Assembly: GCA_023415495.1 (NCBI GenBank)
Contig: JAEZKK010000023.1
Span: forward strand, 145,323-209,322
From: Bacteroidota bacterium
GTDB lineage: Bacteria > Bacteroidota > Bacteroidia > Bacteroidales > P3
Reading direction: 5' to 3'
DNA length: 64,000 bases
Part shown: positions 5,650-57,709 of the stretch, in pieces
Position numbering within the stretch: the stretch's first letter is position 1
Layout of the letters: each line of letters opens with the position of its first letter
Made by a program: the position numbers and the translations under genes
The notes under the pieces: generated by a model
Told to the model about the DNA's origin: nothing
The model's input: only the letters and a program-made list of their open reading frames with translations
Databases searched by the model: none

Positions 5650-6444
5650 CTATTCCTTTCTTCTGTTTTTCTTATATCGCTTATACACCCACCTTGATAA
5701 GAATACTACTAATATTATTACCCATAAATAGGTTAGGGTTGTGAAGACTTTTAAAAAGACTTGAAGTCCTTGGGTTAGAGCTTCCCATAACTCGGAGAAA
5801 AATCTATTAGAATATTTATAATCCTTGTGGAAACTAATGTTTAAGGTGCTGTAATTTACTTGGTCATTTAAGTATTTCAATCTTCCTTGAGTTGCCTCTA
5901 TCTCTATTCTTAAATCATTCAATTGTTTGTAAATCTCAGTAGTCTCATTAACATTCTTAGCCTTAGATAATAAATCCAATAGTTTGGTTTCGTATTCTCT
6001 CTTTACCTTTAACCTTGACTCAATATCGATAAACTCTTCGGTAACATCCTTAACCATTATGGTCTTGCTCTCAATCTCCTTTATATTCTCGTCTTCAATT
6101 ATCTTATTTAGAAAATTATCAAAATCCTTGGATGGCACCCTTATAATTAAGTCATACCCCTTTGAATCTTCATAATTCTCAATCTTTTCGTCTGAAATAT
6201 ATCCCTTATACAATATAACCTTAGACTTTATCCAATTATAAGTTTTCTCTATGCTATTAGTCTTGAAACTAATATATCCGTCTTTAATAAGTTTCTCACC
6301 AACTCTTTTTTCATTAGAATTTGTTTGCTCGTGTGTAACGCTTGCCTCAACCATTGTTCCTTCTCCGCTTTCGGTTTTACTTCCACAACCAAAAACAATT
6401 AGTATAAAGAAAGATAGCAAGCTAAGTTTAAGTTTCCTTTGCAT
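5650..6444 (-). CDS. DUF4349-like lipoprotein
   Basis: 264 aa. Lipobox (LIVFGCGS), a central coiled-coil segment (DVTEEFIDIESRLK...) and a C-terminal transmembrane helix. The pattern matches DUF4349 from memory. Confidence 0.6.
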   Translation of the reverse strand: MQRKLKLSLLSFFILIVFGCGSKTESGEGTMVEASVTHEQTNSNEKRVGEKLIKDGYISFKTNSIEKTYNWIKSKVILYKGYISDEKIENYEDSKGYDLIIRVPSKDFDNFLNKIIEDENIKEIESKTIMVKDVTEEFIDIESRLKVKREYETKLLDLLSKAKNVNETTEIYKQLNDLRIEIEATQGRLKYLNDQVNYSTLNISFHKDYKYSNRFFSELWEALTQGLQVFLKVFTTLTYLWVIILVVFLSRWVYKRYKKNRRKE

Positions 6445-9302: not shown

Positions 9303-11009
9303 CTATTCATAATATTCATATTCAAACCTTACCAAATAAGAAGGATGTCTTTCTTCAACAAGATTTCCTATATCATCATACTTATAATAAACATTTTCAA
9401 TATTAGAATTGTCGCTATATACTATTGTATAATCCTTGCTAAAGGGTTTGTATTTATAATCTGATATTATAATATTCCCTTCGTTATCATTAATAATTCC
9501 TCTTATTAGTTTGCCTTTTGAGTTATAGAAAAAATTAATTTTTGAAGAAAAATAAGGATAATTATAAGCGTACTCTATTAGTCTTTTATTTGAATCGTAT
9601 TTCCAATTTTTAATTATACAATAATCTAAAGTATTTCCTTTATATATTTCTTCTCTTTTATAAACTAAAGTATCATTATCATATTTATATATTTCTCTCC
9701 TATTGTTATATCCTATTATTTCTTTTTCAATTAATCTTTTTTTATCATCATACTTATATGTAGTTTGAGGAGTTTTAGTCTCGCAATCAAATCTTTTTAT
9801 TAATAATCCATTTTCATAAATCAAAGTATCAATGCTAATGTAATTTGAAAATAATTCTGGAGTTTTAATAAGAATAATTTGCTTTTCATCATTGTAGTTA
9901 TATTCTTCAACATTACTCTCTCTCCATTTAATATTTTCTCCTACACGATCTTCATAATAAAATCTTACTTTACTTGATAATGTATAATCGTTATTATATA
10001 AATATTCAATTTTATATGTTTGGTTATATGAGTCAGTTGGTTCATCAAATATCTCCTGAAGTATTTTATCATTTTTATATATGAATCTATGTATTATTGG
10101 AGGAGCATCTGCTCTATAAGTTTTGCTTTCAACCAATCTTCCTTTTTTATCTAATCTAACAACTTCTTTTTTTGGTTTTGTATAGATATCCCTTTCCCAA
10201 CTAATAGTTTGGGATTTTCTGTTTAAACTATCATAAACATAAGTCTTTGTATTAGTTAATTCATTTCTAAAATATGATTTCTTTTGTATTAAATCATTTT
10301 GAGAGTTATAAATATATATAGTTTTCTCTAAACGTTTATTTTTAAGATATTCTATTTCTTTTATTAGATTTCCTTTTTTATCGTACTTATATAGAGTGTA
10401 TTCTCCCTTTGTTTCAGGTGAATAATCTTTAATCTTTTGTCCTTTATTATTGTATTCTATTATGTAACTACTAAATTCAACATTATTATTATAACTATAT
10501 TTAGATGTGTTATTTTTATTAGAATCATAAGTGTACAAAACTCTATGTGAAAACTTACCATTAAAATCTGTAAGTTCTTCAATTAGATTATCAAATCTAT
10601 CGTATTTATAAGTTTTTATTGATTGGATACTATCATTACGATAATCCTCCTTTTTTATACGTTTACCTTTTGAATCATAGTAATACTTAGAAATTTCTAC
10701 ATAATCTCTTTTAGTATATGCACTATCTAAAACAATATTTAGATTTTCATCAAAGTATTTTACAGTTTTATTGATTCTATGATTTTTCTTGTGGATTTTC
10801 GTTTCTTTTAAGTTTTGGAAATCTACAAAGATTGATTCAGAAGGTGTTATTGTATCTAAATAGCCATCTTTGCTGTCCTCGTATGTCTTTTTGTAAAAAG
10901 ATTTTACTTTTCCCTTGAGTTTATAATCGTTTAATGATTGAGCATTAGCCAAGATAGTTAAGCAAAGAAAAACTATTAATCCCAAGAATGCTTTTAAAGG
11001 AATACTCAT
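9303..11009 (-). CDS. secreted YD/RHS-like repeat protein (no toxin domain recognised)
   Basis: 568 aa with a signal peptide (…LTILANAQS). Many degenerate Y.YD..GNLI-type repeats (YKYDRFDNLIEE, YKYDKKGNLIKE, YVYDSLNRK). Confidence 0.6.
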   Translation of the reverse strand: MSIPLKAFLGLIVFLCLTILANAQSLNDYKLKGKVKSFYKKTYEDSKDGYLDTITPSESIFVDFQNLKETKIHKKNHRINKTVKYFDENLNIVLDSAYTKRDYVEISKYYYDSKGKRIKKEDYRNDSIQSIKTYKYDRFDNLIEELTDFNGKFSHRVLYTYDSNKNNTSKYSYNNNVEFSSYIIEYNNKGQKIKDYSPETKGEYTLYKYDKKGNLIKEIEYLKNKRLEKTIYIYNSQNDLIQKKSYFRNELTNTKTYVYDSLNRKSQTISWERDIYTKPKKEVVRLDKKGRLVESKTYRADAPPIIHRFIYKNDKILQEIFDEPTDSYNQTYKIEYLYNNDYTLSSKVRFYYEDRVGENIKWRESNVEEYNYNDEKQIILIKTPELFSNYISIDTLIYENGLLIKRFDCETKTPQTTYKYDDKKRLIEKEIIGYNNRREIYKYDNDTLVYKREEIYKGNTLDYCIIKNWKYDSNKRLIEYAYNYPYFSSKINFFYNSKGKLIRGIINDNEGNIIISDYKYKPFSKDYTIVYSDNSNIENVYYKYDDIGNLVEERHPSYLVRFEYEYYE

Positions 11010-11106: not shown

Positions 11107-11406
11107 AATTTGATTCTATTTTAATATAATGCCATTATACTTGCAATATAATGGCATTATTCTTACGATATAATGGCATTATATTAGATTGGAATTTGAT
11201 AAGAGTAGATTGAGGCTTGATTATGCGAGTTTTAAACTTGATTTAAAAGCTTGGTTTTTGGGATACAACCGATGGTTTTGTTGAATTATTGTATTGAATA
11301 AGGCTTTTTCTCATCGTTTCATCCAATTAATACTCTCTAACCTTTTGTTAATTAACATTTGAGTTAAGAGAACTATCTCTTGATTCTACGAAAATAGAAT
11401 CAAATT
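11107..11406. mobile_element. MITE-like element C: 16-bp perfect terminal inverted repeats enclosing a 3 x 22-bp TAATG-S-CATTA array
   Basis: AATTTGATTCTATTTT at 11107-11122 has its exact reverse complement at 11391-11406. Dyad cores are centred at 11132, 11154 and 11176. No ORF longer than about 20 aa lies inside. Confidence 0.7.
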
Positions 11407-11473
11407 GCATTTTTTTAGAATCCCGAGTTAGTTTTCTGTAATATGATTCTATTTTTCTGTAATTTGACTCTAA

Positions 11474-11519: not shown

Positions 11520-12779
11520 TTAATGCACCTCGAGGATTTCGTTTATATTGGTTGTGTAGTGGTTTGATAGTTTTTCTTGTCTCATTTTCCATGTTCTTCC
11601 ATGGCTTTGTGCGGCAAGTCTTACAATATCTTTACTATAATATGAATTAATTTTATCAACAGCCTTCATTAGTTTCCAATGTCTTGGGTCACTTTCTTCA
11701 AAAAGAGATAGCTGTTTGTTCGACTCATTTATAAAGTCCATTACAATAACTCCGGCCTTCTTATACTTAAAGCCTTTTTGATAAATCTTCTTTAGACCAT
11801 TTGTTGCAAACTTAGATAATTCAATACTGCTATTGGTAGGATAGGGTAGCTTGAGGATAACGAAGTTTGAATATTGCTTTAAATCTTCTCGGAAATAATT
11901 TGTTGTTATAAAAACTTGAATCCTTGTGCAAAGGGAATGTTGCTTCCTTAGTTTCTCTGCACATTTACTTGCAAAAGTGGAGATTCTTTCTTCTATATCT
12001 TCCAAATCCTCCTTCATATTATCGAAGGTACGAGTTACAGCTATTGATTTTTTATCTTTAAATTTTTCTAATTCAATACTTGGTATTCCTTTTAAATCTC
12101 TCATTAGTAATAACCCTACAGAGGTGAGGTTTTTCTTTACCCAATTCTCATCTAAATTAGTAAAATCAAAAGCGTTATTAATATTCATTGCAAGTAACCT
12201 TTTTGAATGTTGTCGCCCTATTCCCCATACATCTCCAATCTTTGTCCACTTTAGGGCTTTAATCCTTTTATATTCGCTATCTATAATATGAATTCCATTG
12301 GTTTGTTTTGGAAATTTTTTAGCAACTCTTGTAGCAGTCTTAGCAAGGCTTTTTGTTGGACCAATTCCTATACTTATAGGTAGATGAGTGCATTTTTCAA
12401 CCTTTTTTTTTATCTCTAAAGCATATTCATAAATATCTTTTTCAATTCCTTTTAAACTAAGAAAGCACTCATCAATACTATATATTTCCATTTCTGGAGA
12501 AAAGCCCGAAAGAATAGTCATAACCCTATTAGACATATCTCCATATAGTTCGAAATTGGCAGAAAACACAGCAATATTATGCTTCTCTATTAAATGTTTT
12601 ATCTTAAAAGCAGGAACGCCCATTTTTACTCCGATATCTTTTGCCTCTTGGGAGCGAGCAATAGCACAACCATCATTATTGCTAAGTACAATAACAGGTC
12701 TTCCGATAAGTGAGGGATTAAAAACCCTTTCACAAGAGGCATAGAAATTATTACAATCTATATGTGCATAAAGGTTCAT
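11520..12779 (-). CDS. umuC: Y-family translesion DNA polymerase, UmuC-like
   Basis: 419 aa. The N-terminus (HIDCNNFYASCERVFNP...PVIVLSNNDGC) and SIDECFL are typical of UmuC. It lies immediately downstream of a UmuD-like gene. Confidence 0.85.
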   Translation of the reverse strand: MNLYAHIDCNNFYASCERVFNPSLIGRPVIVLSNNDGCAIARSQEAKDIGVKMGVPAFKIKHLIEKHNIAVFSANFELYGDMSNRVMTILSGFSPEMEIYSIDECFLSLKGIEKDIYEYALEIKKKVEKCTHLPISIGIGPTKSLAKTATRVAKKFPKQTNGIHIIDSEYKRIKALKWTKIGDVWGIGRQHSKRLLAMNINNAFDFTNLDENWVKKNLTSVGLLLMRDLKGIPSIELEKFKDKKSIAVTRTFDNMKEDLEDIEERISTFASKCAEKLRKQHSLCTRIQVFITTNYFREDLKQYSNFVILKLPYPTNSSIELSKFATNGLKKIYQKGFKYKKAGVIVMDFINESNKQLSLFEESDPRHWKLMKAVDKINSYYSKDIVRLAAQSHGRTWKMRQEKLSNHYTTNINEILEVH

Positions 12780-12788
12780 AATTTATCT

Positions 12789-13250
12789 CTAAATATGTTT
12801 TCTAAGGCTCCAAGTAATAACACCTAAGATTTGAGAATTCATTTCTGGATTAATCTCAATTAATGGGAATTTTTCGTTAGAAGAAACTAAGAAACATTTA
12901 TCCTTTGTTCTTTTTATTCTCTTTGTTGTAAACTCACCATCAATAAATATCATTGCAATATTATTATCTTTATATTCTAAGCTTGAATCAATCACTAATA
13001 AATCTCCTTCAAGAAAATCCTTATTCATAGAAGTTCCCACAACTCTTGCAAAATAAGTTGACTCAGGATGTGGCACACATTCCTTATTTATATCTATTCT
13101 CTGTCCGGTAAAATCGTTTGCTGGTGAAGGGAACCCAGCCCATATATTTCCTATAAATGGGAGACTAAGCTCTTGAGACTCTTTTGAGCCGTAAATCTCA
13201 AAGTCCTGTGTTTTTATTATTGGTCCTTCTAATTTTATTTTTGTCATCAC
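12789..13250 (-). CDS. umuD: S24 peptidase, UmuD-like (no HTH domain)
   Basis: 153 aa. Motifs GFPSPA, VGTSM and a later K (TTKR) match the LexA/UmuD self-cleaving fold. It is paired with umuC. Confidence 0.8.
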   Translation of the reverse strand: MMTKIKLEGPIIKTQDFEIYGSKESQELSLPFIGNIWAGFPSPANDFTGQRIDINKECVPHPESTYFARVVGTSMNKDFLEGDLLVIDSSLEYKDNNIAMIFIDGEFTTKRIKRTKDKCFLVSSNEKFPLIEINPEMNSQILGVITWSLRKHI

Positions 13251-18265: not shown

Positions 18266-19693
18266 TTAGTCATTAAACTTTTTTTCTAATTCATCTACAA
18301 AGCTTTTAAAATCCTTGTCTGTTTCATAATGTTTTTCAACTTGGTTGCATGCATGCAATACTGTTGCGTGATTCTTCTTTCCACATTGAGAACCTATTAC
18401 AGTCAATGAATTTTTTGTAAGCTTTTTTGCAAAATACATCGAAAGCTGCCTGGCTCTAACTATCTCAAATTTTCTTGTAGGAGAATTAATCTTATCAACA
18501 GGCAGATCAAAATAATCACATACTACTTTTTGAATATAATCTATAGTTAATTCCCTCGCATTATTCTTAACGAATTTATCTATCATTTGTTTTGCAAGGT
18601 CAATAGTTATTGTTTTTTTATTAAATGAACTTTGTGCAAGTAGAGAGATTAAAGCTCCTTCTAATTCTCTAATGCTTGAATTAATATTATAGGCTAAATA
18701 CTCAATTATTTCATCACCCATTTCAATTCCGTCCTTGAATAGTTTTGTTTTAAGAATTTTAATTCTTGTTTCTACATCTGGATTCACTAAATCACAACTC
18801 AGTCCCCATTTAAGTCTGGATATTACCCTTTGTTCGAAATCAGCTAATTCAATTGGGGTTTTGTCGGAAGTAATTACTAATTGTTTGCCATTAGAATGTA
18901 GGGTGTTGAATATGTGGAAGAATGCTTCTTGAGTGCTATTTTTCTTTGCAAAGAATTGAATGTCGTCAATTATCAAAAGGTCAATCATTTGATAAAATTG
19001 CATGAAATCATTCTTTGAATTATTCATTATTGATTGAGTATATTGTTGGAAAAACTGTTCCGCAGAAACATATAAAACTGTTTTGTCAGGGAAATTCTTT
19101 TTTGTTTCAATTCCTATTGCATGTGCCAAATGAGTTTTACCAAGTCCGACTGAAGAGTAAATAAATAAAGGATTAAAAGAGCTTTTTCCTGGATTTTTAC
19201 TTACGGCATAACCAGCACTCCTTGCTAAACGGTTACAATCTCCTTCAATAAAATTTTCAAAGGATAAGTTATCGTTTAATTGAGAATTGATTTTAATTTT
19301 TTTAAGCCCAGGTAATATAAATGGATTAGGAAAATCCTTTTGATGAGAATTATTAATATTTACAGGAACATTTACTGGCTTGTTGTATGTAGCAGATTTA
19401 TTAGATGATGGTTGAAGAGTGTTATTAGGCACTCCTGAGTCAATTACATAAGAATAAAGAAGCTTAGCATCAGTCCCAATAACCCTTCGAATAGTTTTTT
19501 TTAGTAAATCCACATAATTCTCCTCAAGCCATTCGCAAAAGAATGGGCTAGGAACTTGAATGGTAAGTATTTTATTCTCTAATTGAAGTGGTTTTATTGG
19601 TTCGAACCATGTTTTGTACATATATTCATTGTCAAGAGCATCCTTAAATACATTAAGGCATTCTTTCCATACGTCCACATGATTTCTTTGCAT
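18266..19693 (-). CDS. dnaA: chromosomal replication initiator DnaA
   Basis: 475 aa. AAA+ motifs (NPLFIYSSVGLGKTHL, LLIIDDIQF) and a C-terminal DnaA-box-binding domain (R.R...AR...MY..K..T..S...IG..). Confidence 0.95.
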   Translation of the reverse strand: MQRNHVDVWKECLNVFKDALDNEYMYKTWFEPIKPLQLENKILTIQVPSPFFCEWLEENYVDLLKKTIRRVIGTDAKLLYSYVIDSGVPNNTLQPSSNKSATYNKPVNVPVNINNSHQKDFPNPFILPGLKKIKINSQLNDNLSFENFIEGDCNRLARSAGYAVSKNPGKSSFNPLFIYSSVGLGKTHLAHAIGIETKKNFPDKTVLYVSAEQFFQQYTQSIMNNSKNDFMQFYQMIDLLIIDDIQFFAKKNSTQEAFFHIFNTLHSNGKQLVITSDKTPIELADFEQRVISRLKWGLSCDLVNPDVETRIKILKTKLFKDGIEMGDEIIEYLAYNINSSIRELEGALISLLAQSSFNKKTITIDLAKQMIDKFVKNNARELTIDYIQKVVCDYFDLPVDKINSPTRKFEIVRARQLSMYFAKKLTKNSLTVIGSQCGKKNHATVLHACNQVEKHYETDKDFKSFVDELEKKFND

Positions 19694-22785: not shown

Positions 22786-22981
22786 CAATTGTAAGGATAG
22801 AACTCTAATTTCCTTATATAAATCACCCCATTTTGTAAAACTACATTATGGTAGCTACCATAAGAGGCGTGTGGTAGGTACCATAACACCCTTGTGGTAG
22901 GTACCATAATGCTCGTGTGGTAGCTACCATAGTGAGATTGTAATCAAAGAAGAATACTTTGTAATCAAATAAGAAAAGTAT

Positions 22982-23015
22982 GGAATCAAATAAGAATTCT
23001 TTGTTATTTGATTCC
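22982..23015 (+). terminator. 12-bp perfect hairpin closing element B; may also terminate the convergent T9SS gene
   Basis: GGAATCAAATAA-GAATTCTTTG-TTATTTGATTCC. AT-rich, with only weak T-runs on both sides. Confidence 0.45.
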
Positions 23016-23033
23016 ATTAAATTTATTCTTGAC

Positions 23034-24464
23034 TTAGTTTACGATTAGCTTTTTAGAATTTGAGTATTTTCCACTTCTTAGATTTATAATATAGGTTCCC
23101 TTTCTTAGATTTCTTGTATTAATTACTAATTCTACTCTTTCATTTATTGGAGAGGACTTAATATTTTCAACCAATCTGCCTTTTATATCATAAATCAAAA
23201 TATCTAAGTCCTGGTTCAAGCCCTCAACCACAAGTTTTGCCTCAGTATTTGTAGGATTTGGATAAAGAAGAAAATCTTTTCCGTTAAAGCTAATCCCTTC
23301 TCCAAGAGAAACAATAATGTTTTTCATAGAATAATACAAATATGTTGAGTCATCACTCCAAGAATTTAAATCATCTGGGAATCCACTCGAATAAACAATA
23401 TTAGTAAGCATATTATTATAATTATCGAAGAATTCTGGCTTCATATAACCCAATTTGTCAGAAAATTGCAAAACATCATCTGAGGTATAATTATAATCAA
23501 ATAAGTTAATATACTTTTGAGTGCAAGCCATTTCTTGATTGTAATTAGTATATGTATTAATAAGGGTTTGATTATTGTTATTATCGTAATACAATGAATC
23601 AATGCTGTGAAGAACAAAGCCATCTGTTGCGTTGTGCATAAAATTATTTCTTGAAACCATTAAATTATTAGGATTGTATGTTAATGTTTGTTTCATTGAT
23701 GGCTTCCACAAGCTATCTTGATAAGCACTATAGTTTTCCATTAAGATTTGAGTAAGCAAATTATTAGAATTATAAGAGTTAAATGTTTTTGAACCATAAC
23801 TTAGCTCTCCTTCACTATTATAATACTCATTTTGTATATGTACTGGATTATTATTATTATCGTATAAATACTCAGTCTTAGAGCCAAGTTCTTCAATCCC
23901 TTCATTTTTATAATATGTTTCTATTTTGGTAATTAAATTGCTTTCATTGTAAAGGTAATCTGTCTTTCCATAATAAATCCAATAATTAGAGTCAAGGTCA
24001 AAAAAGTAATTTTCTTCTTTAGTAAGGAGATTATTTGTGTAATCCGAAAGAGTTTTCTGATTAAATAACCAGGCACTATCTATAAAAATACTCATTATCT
24101 CAGATATTTTGTTTCCGTTATTATCATAAAGATAATCGATATTCTCATGTTGGCGGAAAAAATTAGAGTCATAGTCCCAAATATAGTATAGAGTGTTAAT
24201 TAGATTCTCATTATTGTCATAAGTGTAAACATATTTACTGAATACATCCTTCATTAGGATTAATCTCCCGTATGAATCGTATTCATAAATTGTGGGTTCA
24301 TTTGGAGCATAGGCGTATGCGACGCTATCAAGCGCCATTAATTGGACATTTGCCTTTGATAAAATCTCTGATTTTGATTTGTTTTTCTCTGCTTTGCTTT
24401 GAGAAAAACTATTTTGTGAACCAATAATAATGAAACACAAAACAAGGAAGTAAATCTTTTTCAT
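23034..24464 (-). CDS. secreted YD-like repeat protein with T9SS C-terminal sorting domain
   Basis: 476 aa with a signal peptide. Carries Y.YD..G.L repeats (YEYDSYGRLI, YTYDNNENLI, YLYDNNGNKI). The C-terminus (LYPNPTN...LIYDIKGRLV...GTYIINL...KKLIVN) matches the Por/T9SS CTD pattern. Confidence 0.7.
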   Translation of the reverse strand: MKKIYFLVLCFIIIGSQNSFSQSKAEKNKSKSEILSKANVQLMALDSVAYAYAPNEPTIYEYDSYGRLILMKDVFSKYVYTYDNNENLINTLYYIWDYDSNFFRQHENIDYLYDNNGNKISEIMSIFIDSAWLFNQKTLSDYTNNLLTKEENYFFDLDSNYWIYYGKTDYLYNESNLITKIETYYKNEGIEELGSKTEYLYDNNNNPVHIQNEYYNSEGELSYGSKTFNSYNSNNLLTQILMENYSAYQDSLWKPSMKQTLTYNPNNLMVSRNNFMHNATDGFVLHSIDSLYYDNNNNQTLINTYTNYNQEMACTQKYINLFDYNYTSDDVLQFSDKLGYMKPEFFDNYNNMLTNIVYSSGFPDDLNSWSDDSTYLYYSMKNIIVSLGEGISFNGKDFLLYPNPTNTEAKLVVEGLNQDLDILIYDIKGRLVENIKSSPINERVELVINTRNLRKGTYIINLRSGKYSNSKKLIVN

Positions 24465-36317: not shown

Positions 36318-38163
36318 ATTTCATTTTCATTAGGCATTCTTGGCAGTCGAAGGTTATTTGGTAGGTGTTTTTGTTGTCTTTGAGATATAGGGGTTGGTTA
36401 TAGTCTTTTGGGAGGTTGTTTTTCAGTTTGCAATAGCCCAATTGGAATAAAATGCAATGGCGAGAGGTGAATATTTCCTTGTTTTCAAAGTTCAGAGTTT
36501 CATCTAATCCTTTTTCAATTTCCTCTACTCCATGTCTCTTAAAGAATTCTATGGCTTTTTGATTTATTATGTTTGCCCTATAATCTAATTTGGTTTGAAA
36601 ATAAGGGTAGTTATTTGGTTTGAACTCCTTTGGTTGGGGTTTATTCTCCTCTATTCTTTTTCTTTCTAAACTCTCGCAAGCTTTTCTTCTTAGAGAATTG
36701 ATATAACTATTTGGGAAGAAGTATTTTTCTTTTGTATTGTTTGTAAAGCTTTTTAGATAGAAGGGTGTTTGTCCTAATGCAGCGATTTGGTTTAGTAGTT
36801 TTTCATCATAAGAGTCAAGATTTTTGGCTTTTGTCTTTTCAAAATCCTCATTTACCCTTACTTCTACCTCTGATTCGTCTTTAATAATTAGTTCAAAGCC
36901 ATTTAATGTTTCCTCAAGGATAATATCCACCCCTATCCTCCTTCTTGTCTTGCTCTGCAATAGGGATTTTTCAAATGCTTTATCGTAGTTTCTATATATT
37001 GGTGTAGAGATATTTAATTCTAATTCTTTATTGGGTTTAATCCAAATACCATCAAATCCATTCACTAAAAAACCTTGGATATTATTATTATTATCCTTAT
37101 CCATAAACCATAATCCATCACCATTTTCCATTTTCACTTTATTGTCTAAGGCAAAACTATTTCCTTTAATTCTCTCTATCTTACCTAAATACTCTCCTTT
37201 TGCTCTTGGATTGTGAATATCTCCAATCTCAGATTTCCTTTCCTCTAAATAGAAATTGGTAAAGCCACGATTAAAACTCTTATAGGGGTTGGGCTGAAAT
37301 TCAATATCAACCCTACCAATAGATGAACGAGTATATTTCTCTGGATTATTATTTATACACTTATCTATTTCTCTTCGGTAATAGGCAGTAATATTTTTTA
37401 AATAAGTTATATCCTTTAATCTACCCTCTATCTTAAATGAGGTTATTCCAGAGGATATGAGCTGGGGGATTAATTCACTTGCATTAAAATCTTTAGGTGA
37501 AAGGAGGTATTTGTCTTTAATTAAAATCTTGCCTTCTTGATTTACTAAAGTATATTTATTCCTACATGGTTGAGCACAAACTCCCCTATTACCTGAGCGT
37601 GAAGTAAGAGCAAGAGATAAGTAACATTGTCCTGAAAGTCCTGAACATAGAGCTCCATGAACAAAGGCTTCTAATTCTATATTAGGAGAAAAATTATATA
37701 TTCTATCAATTTGATTTAGGGATAATTCTCTTGCAAGGACTACTCTTTGAATACCTATCTTTTCCAAGAAATCTACCTTCTCCTTAGTGAAATTATTCAT
37801 CTGGGTTGAAGCATGTATAGGAATTGGAGGTAGGTTTAACTCCAAAATTCCTAAGTCTTGGATAATTATTGCATCAGCTCCAATTTGGTAAAGCTTATGA
37901 ATAAAACTCTCTACTTGAAGTAATTCATTATCATATAAGAGGGTATTGACTGTTATATAGACCTTGACCGAGAAAAGATGAGCATAAGAAATAAGCTCTG
38001 CTAAATCCTCAATACTATTACCTACCGAGGCTCTCGCTCCATAACCCTCTCCTCCAATATATAAGGCATCAGCTCCGTAATCCACAGCAGCCTTGCCATA
38101 TTCTAAGTTCTTGGCAGGTGAAAGCAGCTCAATCTTTCTCAAATCCCTTTTTATTTCAAGCAA
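36307..38163 (-). CDS. U32 family peptidase-like protein
   Basis: 618 aa. Motifs ELLSPA, GADALYIGG and E.FVHGALC.S.SGQC are diagnostic of family U32. There is no ATG near the N-terminus; candidate starts are TTG at 38163 or 38142. Overlaps the pdxJ end. Confidence 0.8.
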   Translation of the reverse strand: MLEIKRDLRKIELLSPAKNLEYGKAAVDYGADALYIGGEGYGARASVGNSIEDLAELISYAHLFSVKVYITVNTLLYDNELLQVESFIHKLYQIGADAIIIQDLGILELNLPPIPIHASTQMNNFTKEKVDFLEKIGIQRVVLARELSLNQIDRIYNFSPNIELEAFVHGALCSGLSGQCYLSLALTSRSGNRGVCAQPCRNKYTLVNQEGKILIKDKYLLSPKDFNASELIPQLISSGITSFKIEGRLKDITYLKNITAYYRREIDKCINNNPEKYTRSSIGRVDIEFQPNPYKSFNRGFTNFYLEERKSEIGDIHNPRAKGEYLGKIERIKGNSFALDNKVKMENGDGLWFMDKDNNNNIQGFLVNGFDGIWIKPNKELELNISTPIYRNYDKAFEKSLLQSKTRRRIGVDIILEETLNGFELIIKDESEVEVRVNEDFEKTKAKNLDSYDEKLLNQIAALGQTPFYLKSFTNNTKEKYFFPNSYINSLRRKACESLERKRIEENKPQPKEFKPNNYPYFQTKLDYRANIINQKAIEFFKRHGVEEIEKGLDETLNFENKEIFTSRHCILFQLGYCKLKNNLPKDYNQPLYLKDNKNTYQITFDCQECLMKMKFIL

Positions 38164-38861
38164 CGCTTATACAATTCTACTGTATTCTTAATTCCATAAT
38201 AGAGAGAATCGCAAATAAGAGCATGCCCAATGGATACCTCCAAAAGGTTTGGAATCATATTCTTAAAATATTCTAAGTTCTCAAGATTAAGGTCATGTCC
38301 TGCGTTAAGTCCTAAAGATGCTTTCTCTGCTGCCTTTGCTGCAATTACATATTCCTTAATTGCCTCTTCCTTATTCTTGGAATAATCTCTGGCATAAGCC
38401 TCTGTATATAATTCTACTCTATCTGCTCCTATCTCTTTTGCTCCAAAAACCATATCTTCTGCAGGATTAACAAATACCGAAACCCTTGAATAAGTCTTCA
38501 TTTCAGATATAATTTCACTAAGAAAGGCTTTATATTTGATAGTATCCCATCCTGAATTGGAGGTAATTGCTCCAGGAGGATCTGGAACAAGAGTAATTTG
38601 GTGAGGCTTAATCTCTTTTACAAGCGATATAAATTCTTTACTCGGATATCCTTCGATATTAAATTCAGTACTTAATATAGGTTTTAAATCTCTTACATCC
38701 TGATAACGAATATGTCTTTCATCTGGCCGAGGATGCACAGTAATTCCCTCTGCTCCAAAGCTCTCAATATCCAAAGCCATTTTTATTAAATCAGGAAGAT
38801 TACCTCCTCTTGCATTCCTCAGAGTTGCAATCTTATTTATATTAACGCTTAATTTAGTCAT
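38151..38861 (-). CDS. pdxJ: pyridoxine 5'-phosphate synthase
   Basis: 236 aa. Motifs LSVNI..IATLRNARGG, HPRPDERH, LVPD and GHAL. Confidence 0.9.
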   Translation of the reverse strand: MTKLSVNINKIATLRNARGGNLPDLIKMALDIESFGAEGITVHPRPDERHIRYQDVRDLKPILSTEFNIEGYPSKEFISLVKEIKPHQITLVPDPPGAITSNSGWDTIKYKAFLSEIISEMKTYSRVSVFVNPAEDMVFGAKEIGADRVELYTEAYARDYSKNKEEAIKEYVIAAKAAEKASLGLNAGHDLNLENLEYFKNMIPNLLEVSIGHALICDSLYYGIKNTVELYKRCLK

Positions 38862-38905: not shown

Positions 38906-38913
38906 CAAAAATA
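38906..38913 (-). promoter_or_regulatory. -7 box for pdxJ
   Basis: CAAAAATA equals TATTTTTG on the minus strand. Confidence 0.5.
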
Positions 38914-39022
38914 CAACCAAATCAGAGATAAATAAAATCATATATTAAAATAATACGATTTTTTGCTTGAAATAAATCTTGTAAAACTTAGTATTAAAGT
39001 CAATTAATAGGACTTTGAACTA

Positions 39023-39195
39023 TTTTTTCTTGATTTCAATCTCTAATTCATGGCATGATACTCTGCATATCATGCCATGATATTGTCAGAATCATGGCAT
39101 GATGTTACCGGAATCATGGCATGATGTTGACAGAATCATGCCATGATGTTGAGAACTTCATGGCATGATGTTGAGATTGAAATCAAGAAAAAAAA
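39023..39195. mobile_element. MITE-like element D: 21-bp perfect inverted repeats enclosing a 6 x 22-bp TCATG-S-CATGA array
   Basis: TTTTTTCTTGATTTCAATCTC at 39023-39043 pairs with GAGATTGAAATCAAGAAAAAA at 39173-39193. Core centres at 39053, 39075, 39097, 39119, 39141 and 39163 are exactly 22 bp apart. Confidence 0.8.
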
Positions 39196-39428
39196 GTTTG
39201 AATCTTGATTTGATTAGTTCTTTATTTGATTTTGCTACTCTAAACTCAAGGATATTTTCTTTTATTGCAAGGATAACTTGTATTTTAAAACTCAAGAGCT
39301 GAAAGAATAGGGTTCTAAAATAAATTCAATTTGATTGGTTTCAATTTTTTATCGTATCTTTGAAGGTTAATTATACTGTCTTCTGCAGGATAATTATCTT
39401 GAAAAAAGGAAAAGATTTAAATATATAT

Positions 39429-41204
39429 ATGGAAAAAACATGGGTAATAAAACCAAGGGGAGATGAAAGATTAGTAGATGAATTAGCAAGAGAACTTACA
39501 GTAGATAAGGATGGTAAACCTGAAGACAAACAGGTTTATAATATTATTTCCAACCTCTTAGTTCAAAGAGGGATTAAGGATTACGAGAGTGCTAAGGACT
39601 TTTTCAGACCCTCTCTTTCCAAACTGCACGACCCCTATCTTTTAAATGATATGGATATCGCCGTAGAGAGGATTCTTTTTGCCCAAAAGGGTTCTGAGAA
39701 AATTTTAGTTTATGGGGATTATGACGTTGATGGGACTTCGGCAGTAGCTTTGGTATATTCTTATTTAGAAACTTTTTGTACTGGCGTGGAATTCTATATT
39801 CCTGACCGTTATACTGAAGGTTATGGGGTTTCTTATCAATCTATTGATTGGGCTCTTGAGAATGGAATAAAACTAATTATTGCTTTGGATTGTGGGATTA
39901 AGGCTATTGAACAAGTTAAGTATGCCAAGGAAAGGGGAATTGACTTTATAATCTGCGACCACCACCTTCCGAGCGAAGAACTTCCTGATGCATGTGCTAT
40001 TCTTAATCCAAAGAGATTAGATTCGACTTATCCTTACAAGGAACTTTCGGGTTGTGGAATAGGTTTCAAACTAATACATGCTATTAATAATCAAAGAAAT
40101 CAAGCTTTTGAGAAACTACATCATTATCTCGATTTAGTTGCAATATCTATTGCTGCTGACGTTGTGCCAATTACTGGGGAGAATAGGATTTTGGCCTTTT
40201 TTGGTTTGAAAGTTATTAATAAAATGCCAAGACCTGGTCTTGAAGCGATTTTAGAGTATAGTAAGGTATTGCATGTTGAGGATAATCTGCCTTTTTATTT
40301 CAATAGGGAGCTATCCTTAAGCGATTTGGTATTTCTTGTAGGACCAAGAATCAATGCAGCTGGGAGAATAGAAACAGGGAAGCACTCTGTTGAACTATTG
40401 ATTTGCAAGAAAAAGGAGGAGGCTGCGAAAATTGCTAAGCAAATCAATAATAATAATGACCAAAGGAGGAAATTTGACATTGAAGCTACTGAGCAGGCAT
40501 TAGAAATGATAGACACTTTGCCTGAATATAAGAATTCTAAGTCCACAGTGGTATATAATAAGGATTGGAATAAGGGAGTTGTGGGTATAGTTGCCTCAAG
40601 ACTAATTGAGAAATGCTATAAGCCAACAATTGTTTTTACAAAAAGCAATGGACATATTACAGGGTCGGCTCGTTCTGTCAAAGATTTTGATATATATGCA
40701 GCAATAGAGTCCTGTTCTCACTTACTTGAGCATTTTGGAGGGCATAAATTTGCAGCAGGGCTATCCCTAAAGGAAGAAAATCTTGAAGAATTTAAGAGAT
40801 TATTCGAAAAACAGGTAGAAGAAAATATTAGCGATAAGCAATCTCAAAGAGAAATAGATATAGATATGCAAATTTCTCTTAGCGATATAAGTCCTAAGCT
40901 CTTTAGAATACTTAATCAATTCTCTCCTTTTGGTCCTGAGAATAGTATTCCAGTATTTCAATCTAATAATGTAGTTGATACTGGGCTTGGCAGGCCTGTT
41001 GGGGCAAATCACTTGAAGTTAAATGTTCTTCATCTAAATGTTAGACATAATCCCTTTGCTTGCATTGGGTTTGGTCTAAGCAGTTATTATAAAGACATTA
41101 GAGGAGAGAAACCATTTGATATTTGTTATCAGATAGATGAGAACCTATGGAATGGCAAAACCTCTTTACAATTAAAATTAATGGACATTAGAATTAATAA
41201 ATAA
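39429..41204 (+). CDS. recJ: single-stranded-DNA-specific exonuclease RecJ
   Basis: DHH motifs (GDYDVDGTS, DCG, CDHH) and a DHHA1 motif (GGH..AAG). I use the ATG at 39429; the track's TTG extension from 39360 adds a hydrophobic, non-conserved peptide. Confidence 0.9.
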   Translation: MEKTWVIKPRGDERLVDELARELTVDKDGKPEDKQVYNIISNLLVQRGIKDYESAKDFFRPSLSKLHDPYLLNDMDIAVERILFAQKGSEKILVYGDYDVDGTSAVALVYSYLETFCTGVEFYIPDRYTEGYGVSYQSIDWALENGIKLIIALDCGIKAIEQVKYAKERGIDFIICDHHLPSEELPDACAILNPKRLDSTYPYKELSGCGIGFKLIHAINNQRNQAFEKLHHYLDLVAISIAADVVPITGENRILAFFGLKVINKMPRPGLEAILEYSKVLHVEDNLPFYFNRELSLSDLVFLVGPRINAAGRIETGKHSVELLICKKKEEAAKIAKQINNNNDQRRKFDIEATEQALEMIDTLPEYKNSKSTVVYNKDWNKGVVGIVASRLIEKCYKPTIVFTKSNGHITGSARSVKDFDIYAAIESCSHLLEHFGGHKFAAGLSLKEENLEEFKRLFEKQVEENISDKQSQREIDIDMQISLSDISPKLFRILNQFSPFGPENSIPVFQSNNVVDTGLGRPVGANHLKLNVLHLNVRHNPFACIGFGLSSYYKDIRGEKPFDICYQIDENLWNGKTSLQLKLMDIRINK

Positions 41205-56204: not shown

Positions 56205-56624
56205 CTATTCATCTTTCGTTACCAATCCCTTTGGTGGTTTGCGCATATTGTCGAATTTCATTTCTTTTATGGCTCTTGTTAGGGAACGTGCGGCTTTAAA
56301 GGTTACTTTTGTTGCTTTAACTTTCTTCGGATTAATATCTTTAGGGTCGTCATAGCCTTCACTGGTTACCCAAACTCCAAACACTCCAATCTTTTTCAAG
56401 TTTACATTTTCACCTTGCATTAAATGATATTCAATACGATTGGAAAGTGCAGCCACCATCCCCAATACGTCTGGTTCAGAGAAAGATGACATTTCTGACA
56501 CCTCTCTTACTAAAGTTTCTTCATCAACAACTCTTGATGTTCTTGGACATGCATAGTATTTTTCTACAACATTTCCCTCAGCATCTTTAAATTTTCTTTT
56601 CCAAATTCCGAATATTTTACTCAT
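56205..56624 (-). CDS. Bacteroidota-type long HU-like DNA-binding protein
   Basis: 139 aa. The central segment (L..G..V.L..IG.F.......G) resembles the HU beta-arm region. The layout matches the HU-related family restricted to Bacteroidota (from memory). Confidence 0.7.
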   Translation of the reverse strand: MSKIFGIWKRKFKDAEGNVVEKYYACPRTSRVVDEETLVREVSEMSSFSEPDVLGMVAALSNRIEYHLMQGENVNLKKIGVFGVWVTSEGYDDPKDINPKKVKATKVTFKAARSLTRAIKEMKFDNMRKPPKGLVTKDE

Positions 56625-56728: not shown

Positions 56729-56899
56729 TTCATATAATGATATAGCAAATATCATGCCATGAATTAGTTGAAATCATGGCATGAATTGGTCGGATTCATG
56801 GCATGATTCTAAGCAATTCATGGCATGAAATGGAGAACATCATGGCATGAATTCGTGTTCATCATGACATGATTCCGAGATCGAAATCAAATAAAAAAA
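56729..56899. repeat. element E: 7 x 22-bp TCATG-S-CATGA array (first and last units degenerate), paralog of D, upstream of the HU-like gene
   Basis: Core centres at 56735, 56757, 56779, 56801, 56823, 56845 and 56867. The right flank GAGATCGAAATCAAATAAAAAAAGTT...CTTGAT aligns with D's right flank. The left arm is degenerate (TTTCTATCTC versus GAGATCGAAA). Confidence 0.8.
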
Positions 56900-56938
56900 G
56901 TTAAAAACTTGATATAATTAGCTTTATACTTGATTTGC

Positions 56939-57709
56939 TTAGCGTTTAACTTGATTTTGTCTTGCAAATTCGGCACAAATTATCGAGGTTGCTATGCTTG
57001 CGTTTAGGCTTTCGATTTTTTGGTCTAAGGAAAAGCATGGTATGGTGATTGGATTGGTAATTAAAGGCAGGATTTCCTTGCTAATGCCGTGTGATTCGCT
57101 ACCTATTACTATTATTCCTTGATTTGGGAGGTCTTGGGTGTAGATATTCTTTCCTCCTTGCACAACGGTGCCAAAAACTTTATACTTCTTATCTAAGACT
57201 TTTAAATATTCCTCAAGATTTTGGCAAGTAACATTTACCCTAAAGAGGGAACCCATTGTGGATTGCACGGTTTTGGGGTTATATAATTCCACAGAATCTT
57301 CCGAACATATAATATCTTTTATACCAAACCAATCGGCAAGGCGAATAATTGTACCAAGATTGCCTGGGTCCTTAATTCCATCCAAAGCAATAACCAATCT
57401 ATTTTCGTTTTCAATAGGTTTGTTAGGAATATTCTCCAATAAGGCTATAACTTTATTAGGAGTGGAGAGATTAGATAGCTTTTGAAGCTCATCACTATTA
57501 ACAATATAAACCTCATCTGCAATATCTTTCAATTCCTTTTCCCTATCCTGAATATAATCCTCAAGAGCAAAAACAGCCAATATCCTCCTCTTGCTTTCTA
57601 TTAGCTCATCCACCATCTTAACTCCTTCAACCAAGAACCTACCCTCCTCTTTCCTATGCTTAAGCGATTTAAGCAACGAAATCTTTTTAATCAAAGCCTT
57701 TGAAATCAT
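56939..57709 (-). CDS. TrmH/SpoU family RNA 2'-O-methyltransferase
   Basis: SpoU motifs (LDGI.DPGNLGTIIR, IGSE..G) and an N-terminal substrate-binding domain. ATG at 57709 is used; the track's TTG at 57736 lies inside the -7 box. Confidence 0.8.
   Translation of the reverse strand: MISKALIKKISLLKSLKHRKEEGRFLVEGVKMVDELIESKRRILAVFALEDYIQDREKELKDIADEVYIVNSDELQKLSNLSTPNKVIALLENIPNKPIENENRLVIALDGIKDPGNLGTIIRLADWFGIKDIICSEDSVELYNPKTVQSTMGSLFRVNVTCQNLEEYLKVLDKKYKVFGTVVQGGKNIYTQDLPNQGIIVIGSESHGISKEILPLITNPITIPCFSLDQKIESLNASIATSIICAEFARQNQVKR

Follow-up and report, generated by a model that had tools for sequence, protein, structure and literature searches.

Between the divergently oriented genes pdxJ and recJ of an uncultured "Bacteroidales bacterium", which is found in metagenomes from sludge, landfill, manure and compost, a 173-bp feature raises the question of whether it serves the two genes that it separates or belongs to something else. 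It consists of six copies of a palindromic core in exact phase, enclosed by a perfect inverted repeat, and was analysed here together with the complete surrounding stretch of 64 kb of DNA (hereafter the window). We consider it likely that the feature is the centre of one copy, of about 300 bp including its flanks, of a dispersed modular non-coding repeat that is common in a clade of uncultured Bacteroidales. In this repeat, outer A/T-rich subrepeats of 21-22 bp, the innermost of which form the inverted repeat, would surround a central minisatellite of three to eight units of 22 bp (23 bp in the families with an even palindrome), and each unit would be composed of a strict dyad, here R-W-W-TCATG-S-CATGA-W-W-Y, and about five free bases. 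The copy between pdxJ and recJ may merely fill the space between two divergent promoters, so that any effect on pdxJ or recJ would be incidental, and the element is probably of little consequence for both genes.

A phased array between pdxJ and recJ

The array is flanked by pdxJ (38151-38861) on the minus strand and by recJ, the ATG of which is at 39429, on the plus strand, and lies outside the Bacteroidetes-type -7 boxes of both genes, TAnnTTTG being the established Bacteroidetes -7 promoter motif. An earlier note on this DNA, made from the sequence alone, had already placed it in the divergent intergenic region and outside the pdxJ -7 box, which is correct. The six cores TCATGSCATGA occupy 39048-39168, and direct reading bears out the centres given in that note, 39053, 39075, 39097, 39119, 39141 and 39163, with a pitch of exactly 22 bp, as well as the five differing 9-nt spacers that it quoted. 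The claimed conservation of the core stands for the 11-nt core TCATGSCATGA, which is perfect in six of six units, but not for the 13-nt form ATCATGSCATGAT, which is perfect in only four of the six, units 1 and 6 beginning with T. The centre bases of the units are, in order, G, C, G, G, C and G. A perfect 21-bp inverted repeat (39023-39043 and 39173-39193) directly encloses the array, in agreement with the earlier description, and its arms turned out to be a conserved part of a repeated element; perfect pairing ends there on both sides, and the inverted repeat is contained within a looser 86-nt palindrome at 39018-39198 that is 80% complementary. The suggestion that all sites lie on one face of the helix holds for neighbouring units but not for the six units together, as a 22-bp period at 10.5 bp per turn drifts by 34 degrees per unit and thus by about 170 degrees over the whole array.

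Tandem Repeats Finder assigns the array a score of 135. When at most one mismatch is allowed, the core occurs 12 times in the 64-kb window, all within two arrays, compared to 0.88 +/- 0.90 occurrences in shuffled sequences, none of which reached 12 in 100 shuffles. A chance origin of the core array is therefore excluded.

A dispersed family of related arrays

Using Tandem Repeats Finder and direct reading, five arrays of common build were found in the window, here named A1 to A5, with the array between pdxJ and recJ as A4 (Table 1). All five are intergenic and beside housekeeping genes, and the gene arrangements around them are divergent, convergent and tandem. The gap from palindrome to palindrome is 11 nt in all arrays, and thus an odd palindrome of 11 nt results in a period of 22 bp and an even palindrome of 12 nt in a period of 23 bp. 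Next to each array, on one side or on both, lie A/T-rich subrepeats that measure about 21 bp and contain AAATCAAG or CTTGATTT. A1 and A3, both with a 23-bp period and a core of the TGGTAGSTACCA type (TGGTAG arrays), have about 200 bp in common including the spacers, differ by one 21-bp flank unit and carry their flank units on one side only. In A5, a sister copy with the TCATGSCATGA core, one AAATCAA unit comes after the palindromic units, and then three CTTGAT-type units, with a spacing of about 21 bp. The flank units of the AATCAAGAAAGAAT or CTTGATTT type (1836-1881, 22938-23004 and 56907-56957) are themselves 21-bp tandem repeats, with two copies in A1 and three in A3.

Outside of the window, a scan with a two-unit pattern over one genome per species matched at least 114 stretches, and all family counts given in the following refer to the matches listed. 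The matching stretches mostly belong to metagenome-assembled genomes of Bacteroidales or Bacteroidetes that originate from digesters, rumen, gut and soil and in which the loci are numerous, and several of the matched genomes are syntenic relatives of the window organism with 65-80% nucleotide identity in genes. At least 93 arrays of three to eight units are present in the matched loci, always between genes; in 76 cases the position is 5' of a gene and in 65 cases 3' of one, without any bias in gene orientation. Many of them are situated within a few hundred bases of a contig end, which fits an assembly-breaking repeat. Recurrent neighbours of the arrays are orthologous loci, e.g., argS-clpS, ruvA and an ABC-F gene, and near-identical copies are found with A1 and A3 in the window and with L027 and L036 among the genome loci. 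The outward flank consensus is identical on both sides, GAGATTaAAAC.aaGTTtAAAAAGTT, also written GAGATTgAAAtC.aaG...AAAaAGTT, and beyond it a decaying 22-bp periodic pattern, AGATTaAAAC.t.GTTTta.t, continues for at least 90 bp, which gives an element of about 300 bp without a sharp end. Pattern matches in actinobacteria lie inside the coding sequence of a conserved gene and were set aside as unrelated to the family. A literature search by core sequence and by description returned only primers and the paper on BrickBuilt, to which we come back below. The array is thus not a site that belongs to pdxJ and recJ: the window has five such arrays, related genomes have more than 90, and relatives with the same promoters lack it.

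Lineage-specific presence and changes in unit number

The history of the copy between pdxJ and recJ was followed on contigs that encode PdxJ variants. Six units are present in 11 independent contigs of the same species, whereas a lineage with 97% PdxJ identity has three units in four assemblies, with identical inverted-repeat arms. Unit number thus varies as the earlier note had expected of a minisatellite. In a species with 85% PdxJ identity, recJ and pdxJ are still divergent and both -7 boxes (TATCTTTG and TATTTTTG) are kept, and the 285-bp spacer contains no palindromic array but only three 21-bp TTTTTTGTCTCTTGATTTTAA units. Similarly, CTSoil_022 (72% PdxJ identity) has kept the gene pair and both -7 boxes around a 250-bp spacer without an array, while arrays are present elsewhere in its genome. 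As the array is absent in relatives that keep the pair and its promoters, it is not needed for pdxJ or recJ. The array between pdxJ and recJ is lineage-specific, and was either gained in the lineage of the window or lost in the others. A scan of metagenomes with PdxJ yielded only relatives of at most 70% identity, and no arrays in these. Flank units can also occur without a palindromic array, as seen in the pdxJ-recJ spacer of the sister species (L196 and L200, upstream of pdxJ).

A second case of a large change in unit number is the argS-clpS spacer, in which close relatives have seven and three units, respectively (L048, 5567-5709; L051, 737-791), with almost identical flanks. According to the earlier note, free variation of unit number and spacers between strains without phenotype, combined with no specific binding and no strand-specific transcript, would point to a neutral selfish repeat, and in this respect the outcome is mixed: unit number and spacers do vary between lineages, but the cores and the inverted-repeat arms do not.

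Constraint on the cores and their rearrangement

Polymorphism was counted among the 11 strain contigs with six units. None of the 60 fixed core positions and none of the 42 positions of the inverted-repeat arms is polymorphic, compared to seven of 63 spacer positions, one of six centre bases (a change between C and G) and 18 of 413 positions in the rest of the intergenic region; the difference between core and spacer has a p-value of 0.013. In a profile of 410 units, positions outside of the search pattern are still constrained as a dyad, with always A/T at +/-6, always a purine at -8 and always a pyrimidine at +8, from which it follows that the recognised unit comprises a 17-bp dyad and about five free bases. 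The two half-sites vary independently of each other, as Watson-Crick pairs at -8/+8, -7/+7 and -6/+6 and across the spacers are not above expectation. In 98% of the units, the centre is occupied by G or C, and centre bases of adjacent and mirror units are complementary in 38% and 45% of the cases, respectively, versus 49% expected. A selected palindrome of the whole array was also considered and rejected, since the complementarity of mirror spacers is no higher within arrays than between arrays. Independent half-sites and non-complementary centres speak for half-site recognition of duplex DNA instead of a selected hairpin, and judged from sequence comparison the pattern fits better with the former. 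The cores and arms might hence be kept by a protein that reads duplex DNA, i.e., a dimeric or structure-specific binder, for which a mobilising enzyme or a nucleoid protein would be the candidates.

Each core is its own reverse complement, and therefore any two cores are direct and inverted repeats of each other at the same time. Slippage or recombination between cores could in this way add, remove or flip units. Spacers recur in both orientations across the family, and in the orthologous array 5' of the gene for an HU-family protein, described in the next section, one spacer is inverted between species, with a direct identity of 2/11 and an identity of 9/11 to the reverse complement. The proposal that the dyad is used in both orientations is in line with these spacer inversions and with the flips of the centre base, which are seen between strains and species.

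Several points weigh against a mobile repeat whose cores are under selection. The difference between the core and the other intergenic DNA has a p-value of only 0.15 and the polymorphism counts are small, and gene conversion instead of selection could explain the invariance of the cores. As the loci were found through a search for the core, its conservation between genomes is partly built into the sample. Neither a target-site duplication nor a sharp outer boundary nor an autonomous partner was found for the element, and we infer mobility only from copy number, from the near-identical copies (A1/A3 and L027/L036) and from presence and absence. Furthermore, some copies are kept at one site across deep divergence, especially those 5' of the gene for the HU-family protein, which argues for a host function of at least some copies.

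Arrays upstream of an HU-HIG gene

Among the recurrent neighbours, the most numerous group consists of genes for an HU-family protein of 139 aa, which belongs to the HU-HIG clade (PF18291) specific to Bacteroidetes and is encoded in the window at 56205-56624 on the minus strand. Of nine HU-HIG-like open reading frames (ORFs) in the 868 kb of sequence with arrays, seven lie 72-173 bp downstream of an array, with the array always 5', and the HU lineages to which the array-linked ORFs belong show 80, 58 and 27% identity to the window protein. These loci had been chosen for having arrays; in a separate test, four HU-HIG homologues (67, 66, 54, and 50% identity) were fetched regardless of arrays. 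Three of the four have a 22-bp palindromic array of four to five units upstream, one of which shows a changed core, AACAATGSCATTGTT, with the inner ATG-S-CAT and the dyad kept, and the fourth has only flank-type AGAATCAAG repeats upstream. Taken over the window and the loci L083, L105, L030, L086, L024, L062 and L222-L227, nearly all relatives examined have an array upstream of an HU-HIG gene. The array 5' of HU-HIG is far more persistent than the copy between pdxJ and recJ. Judged from sequence comparison, the HU-HIG link is thus the most promising pointer to a possible function or binding partner, with few independent events behind it. In two relatives (L222, 2003-3420, and L228, 1949-3360), the HU-HIG gene is directly followed by genes for an N6/N4 DNA methyltransferase and a CfrBI-like restriction endonuclease.

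Alternative explanations

The position between two promoters and the phased dyads, which resemble tandem operators, would suit a dedicated operator array that controls the divergent pdxJ and recJ promoters together. This is contradicted by the relatives with 85% and 72% PdxJ identity, in which the array is absent with the gene pair and the -7 boxes conserved; moreover, the unit number is halved in the lineage with 97% identity and the identical type of array is found beside unrelated genes, so that an operator is extremely improbable. An array that acts as structured RNA or single-strand hairpin, e.g., as small RNA, RNase III substrate, bidirectional terminator or mRNA stabiliser, would need a long stem-loop. 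The stem-loop proposed in the earlier note is indeed predicted to be very stable, with -62.5 kcal/mol as DNA (z = -13.5) and -96.1 kcal/mol as RNA (z = -12.3), whereby the inverted repeat forms the closing stem and neighbouring units, not single units alone, pair into three hairpins. However, comparable folding would be expected of any tandem palindrome, and covariation gives no support for selection of a hairpin: neither within the units nor across the spacers is Watson-Crick covariation above expectation, adjacent and mirror centre bases are not complementary, and substitutions in the spacers between strains are uncompensated. At the gathering score, no Rfam 15 family matched anywhere in the window, and when the intergenic region was scanned by E-value, the sole matches were to plant and animal long-hairpin microRNA models and, with 59.8 bits against a threshold of 200 bits, sub-threshold. 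Another array copy is present within a 1.1-kb RNA contig of a metatranscriptome and arrays are often located 3' of genes, both of which would suit an RNA function, but the element has no orientation relative to genes and no terminator-like site was found. In the metatranscriptome X28, the flanking genes are covered about 32-fold, the recJ contig starts at 39393, downstream of the recJ -7 box, and the HU-HIG contig ends at 56710; no contig of the same locus crosses the array between pdxJ and recJ or A5, which is weak evidence, as these are assembled contigs without strand or end data. We therefore regard an RNA element as very unlikely. The arrays also recall iterons, the 22-bp spacing beside A/T-rich DNA being typical of these, and could then be relics of phage or plasmid replication origins or decoys titrating an initiator. 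The viral contig L208 (IMGVR_UViG_3300021077_000037) contains four plus one GTTCATGSCATGAAC units at 5700-5870 with a spacing of 22-23 bp, followed by an A/T-rich stretch, and the units lie inside a 339-aa ORF with a helix-turn-helix-like N-terminus, a layout as in the lambda O gene with its internal origin. However, this is a single viral match, and with only 1024 palindromic 11-mers with S in the centre coincidence is possible; the ORF has no Pfam or PHROG match, no initiator gene is near any chromosomal array, five arrays per 64 kb are far too dense for origins, and dnaA (18266-19693) adjoins no array. An iteron origin of the family is thus hardly credible. In three related phage contigs (L209, 2947-2979; L210, 7152-7184; L211, 852-884), two AATAATGSCATTATT dyads are present 22 bp apart just upstream of a gene start, which look like an operator pair and have the core of the window array at 11123-11184. 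A general link to phages was rejected for too little evidence: a single viral contig has the TCATGSCATGA core, two other cores have no viral match, and a third occurs in operator-like pairs. In CRISPR arrays, the repeats measure about 23 nt or more, the unique spacers are of comparable length, and cas genes or a leader are present; here, the repeat measures 11-17 nt and the variable part 5-11 nt, the spacers recur between loci and the window contains no cas domain, and CRISPR was therefore rejected as well.

A classical MITE (miniature inverted-repeat transposable element), i.e., a deleted insertion sequence mobilised in trans via 21-bp terminal inverted repeats (ends GAGATTGAAATCAAG) with the minisatellite as passenger, would explain the perfect 21-bp inverted repeat that bounds the array, the intergenic location in multiple copies and the presence or absence between species, and BrickBuilt has been classed as a MITE with IS5-like ends. 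However, the inverted repeat abuts the array on the inside, and the similarity within the family runs outward for at least 90 bp with a decaying 22-bp period and no sharp terminus. The arms are thus at most putative MITE termini, a role which the earlier note had proposed: at the pdxJ-recJ array no target-site duplication is visible, with the "empty" site of the sister species too diverged at its junctions and 15 of 15 conspecific contigs filled, Pfam scans of all ORFs detected no transposase or integrase encoded in the window, and neighbour clustering and multi-copy ORFs revealed no recurrent transposase beside the arrays of the 114 listed loci (868 kb). Moreover, the BrickBuilt/IS5 end GAGACCTTTGCA is found at no element; with at most two mismatches it occurs eight times in the window, none of these at an element, which is not more than chance would give, as six of 100 shuffles reach eight. 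As the flank units of A1 and A3 are in addition one-sided, a classical MITE appears unlikely. The arrays could instead be binding platforms for a nucleoid-associated protein, most plausibly for the HU-HIG protein encoded at 56205-56624, in autoregulation, DNA structuring or promoter insulation, and the copy between pdxJ and recJ would be one such platform. The seven of nine HU-HIG-like ORFs downstream of an array, which come from several HU lineages, and the three of four homologues in the test without selection for arrays are in favour of this possibility, as are the independent constraint of the half-sites, which protein recognition predicts, the location of BrickBuilt_14 next to a PF00216 protein and the preference of HU-family proteins for bent or cruciform DNA. 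On the other hand, most of the HU cases are orthologous and thus represent few independent events, the genome of the window has three unrelated cores side by side, so that a single sequence-specific reader cannot explain all arrays, and the arrays turn over quickly elsewhere, A4 being absent in the sister species. In addition, the study in which HU-HIG was defined saw no conserved linkage to other genes and considered the proteins unlikely to be sequence-specific factors (PMC5499826). A nucleoid platform can therefore be assumed only tentatively and is rather improbable as an account of the arrays, though less so than the other alternatives. Going further, it is conceivable as a speculation by analogy that the 22-bp arrays and one HU-HIG paralogue form a partnership, in which HU-HIG would bind phased dyads or cruciform-prone DNA, would autoregulate via its own array despite the turnover of the core, and would use the about one hundred dispersed copies for nucleoid organising or promoter insulation. 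This would be comparable in its logic to repetitive extragenic palindromes (REPs) and their REP-associated tyrosine transposases (RAYTs), or to a DNA-binding protein that has an operator array of its own. We consider such a partnership doubtful; if true, it would represent the first DNA target for the enigmatic expansion of HU-HIG proteins in Bacteroidetes.

Features of the window

The coordinates of the five arrays and of the parts of the copy between pdxJ and recJ are summarised in Table 1.

Table 1. Arrays and associated features in the 64-kb window
Feature	Position	Strand	Remarks
Family member A1: four 23-bp units, core given as TGGTAGCTACCA, and AATCAAGAAAGAAT flank units	1810-1972 (array 1886-1972)	-	
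Family member A2: three 22-bp units, core ATAATGSCATTAT, and CTTGATT flank units	11123-11260 (array 11123-11184)	+	
Family member A3: four 23-bp units, core TGGTAGSTACCA, and three or four AATCAAR flank units	22849-23025 (array 22849-22931)	+	
pdxJ -7 promoter box TATTTTTG, outside the element	38906-38913	-	Kept in relatives with and without array
A4, left outer flank: degenerate flank-type units (AAGTCCTATTAATTGACTTTAAT...)	38960-39022	.	Putative, from family consensus; outer limit approximate
A4, left arm of 21-bp inverted repeat, TTTTTTCTTGATTTCAATCTC, the innermost flank unit	39023-39043	.	Matches family-wide outward flank consensus
A4, six 22-bp units: 11-nt palindrome TCATGSCATGA (up to 17 bp, R-W-W-core-W-W-Y) and variable middle	39048-39168	.	
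A4, right arm of 21-bp inverted repeat, GAGATTGAAATCAAGAAAAAA	39173-39193	.	
A4, right outer flank: A/T-rich subrepeats of about 21 bp with CTTGATTT or TTTGATT (39203-39215, 39219-39231)	39194-39255	.	Outer limit approximate
recJ -7 promoter box TATCTTTG, outside the element	39355-39362	+	Kept in relatives without array
Sister copy A5: seven units with TCATGSCATGA core (first and last degenerate)	56730-56960 (array 56730-56872)	.	5' of HU-HIG gene 56205-56624 (minus)

Two genes for RHS-repeat proteins (9303-11009 and 23034-24464, both on the minus strand), one of which has a type IX secretion system (T9SS) sorting tail, adjoin A2 and A3, and an umuD/umuC-like pair (11520-13250) flanks A2 on its opposite side. 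At 11432-11472, 250 bp from A2, there are two copies of a separate tandem repeat of 21 bp, TTTTCTGTAATATGACTCTAT. The gene dnaA is found on the minus strand, and the window is probably near the chromosomal replication origin. Among the genome loci, a sequence that is present in multiple copies and has TGACCCGTCCTGAATAAGGTTGACAAATTATTAATTTGTAC as its precise end directly adjoins arrays or array flanks, at positions that vary (L032, L039, L058, L064, L065, L067, L083, L103, L107 and L114, also L074 and L112). Contigs break about 86 bp inside this sequence, which looks like another mobile element targeting the arrays; in L112 and L074, what comes after it is a fragment for a T9SS C-terminal sorting domain and not a transposase.

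Comparison with known repeat elements

The small dispersed repeats of Bacteroidales, which are inhabitants of gut, rumen and digesters, are almost undescribed, and BrickBuilt is the only published relative of the family described here. The shared unit logic gives annotators a name for assembly-breaking features that can look regulatory. Furthermore, the strict 17-bp dyad and the conservation of the arms without covariation of base pairs predict a DNA-binding partner, for which HU-HIG is a testable candidate, and this link lifts the interest of the family above that of an ordinary selfish repeat.

Several other kinds of repeats share single traits with the family. BOX elements (boxA-boxB(n)-boxC) of Streptococcus pneumoniae are modular, non-coding and intergenic, have a high copy number and no transposase of their own, and carry variable internal tandem modules between partly complementary end modules, which results in a stable stem-loop. 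The family in the window has the same modular design of end, n units and end, whereas the boxB unit is non-palindromic with 45 bp, the host is a Firmicute, and 22-bp phasing and a strict dyad core are absent in BOX. REPs, known from enterobacteria and pseudomonads, are imperfect palindromes of 20-40 bp with a GTAG or CGTC head, which fold singly; together with bacterial interspersed mosaic elements (BIMEs) they occur in hundreds of copies, are bound by IHF, gyrase and Pol I, and have a partner RAYT gene that is flanked by repeats. The position of the HU-HIG gene downstream of an array recalls such a repeat-flanked RAYT gene. Like REP and BIME (PMC3733652), the arrays are short extragenic palindromes in both orientations that are clustered between genes. 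The dyads of the window family, however, measure 11-17 bp with a centre of 0-1 nt, cannot fold alone and are strictly phased at 22 bp, the core between pdxJ and recJ has no GTAG, and no Y1/RAYT-like gene was found among the array neighbours or in the window. With iterons and phage operators, such as the lambda origin inside gene O and the 22-bp iterons of plasmids, the arrays share four to seven dyads with a spacing of about 22 bp beside A/T-rich DNA; these, in contrast, form a single set per replicon beside the gene of the binding protein, whereas five arrays without such a gene are found in 64 kb of core chromosome.

Among published elements, the nearest relative is BrickBuilt, a minisatellite/MITE of Porphyromonas gingivalis with 19 strictly intergenic copies (Klein et al., 2015, Mob DNA 6:18, PMC4596501). 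Its 23-nt unit AGACCATAGTATCCTCTCATATG forms in tandem a perfect palindrome of 12 bp, TCTCATATGAGA, plus an 11-nt spacer (PMC4596501 supplement), the unit number differs between strains and reaches up to 22.8 units, and long stem-loops are predicted, without any Rfam match (PMC4596501). The leader of about 285 nt and the tail of about 318 nt are non-repetitive and unlike, the ends are IS5-like terminal inverted repeats of 12 bp, GAGACCTTTGCA, and bidirectional promoter activity was seen in reporter assays; BrickBuilt_14 adjoins a PF00216 DNA-binding protein and BrickBuilt_5 adjoins argS, and the element reportedly occurs only in P. gingivalis and P. gulae (PMC4596501). The BrickBuilt core pattern had no viral matches in our searches. 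Both families have a host among the Bacteroidales, are intergenic and multi-copy, and differ between strains in their unit number, and the unit logic of a palindrome of 11-12 bp plus 11 nt is the same, the window array being TCATGSCATGA plus 11 nt. However, the BrickBuilt core is unrelated in sequence to the cores in the window. Moreover, the flanks of the window family are mirror-image A/T-rich subrepeats of 21-22 bp, the innermost of which form the 21-bp inverted repeat touching the array, unlike the dissimilar leader and tail of BrickBuilt, and the window family has three to eight units and occurs in many uncultured Bacteroidales. Three defining features of BrickBuilt, namely the unit sequence, the leader and tail, and the IS5-like ends, thus do not apply to it, and the family is best read as a much broader variant of the BrickBuilt kind with several interchangeable cores.

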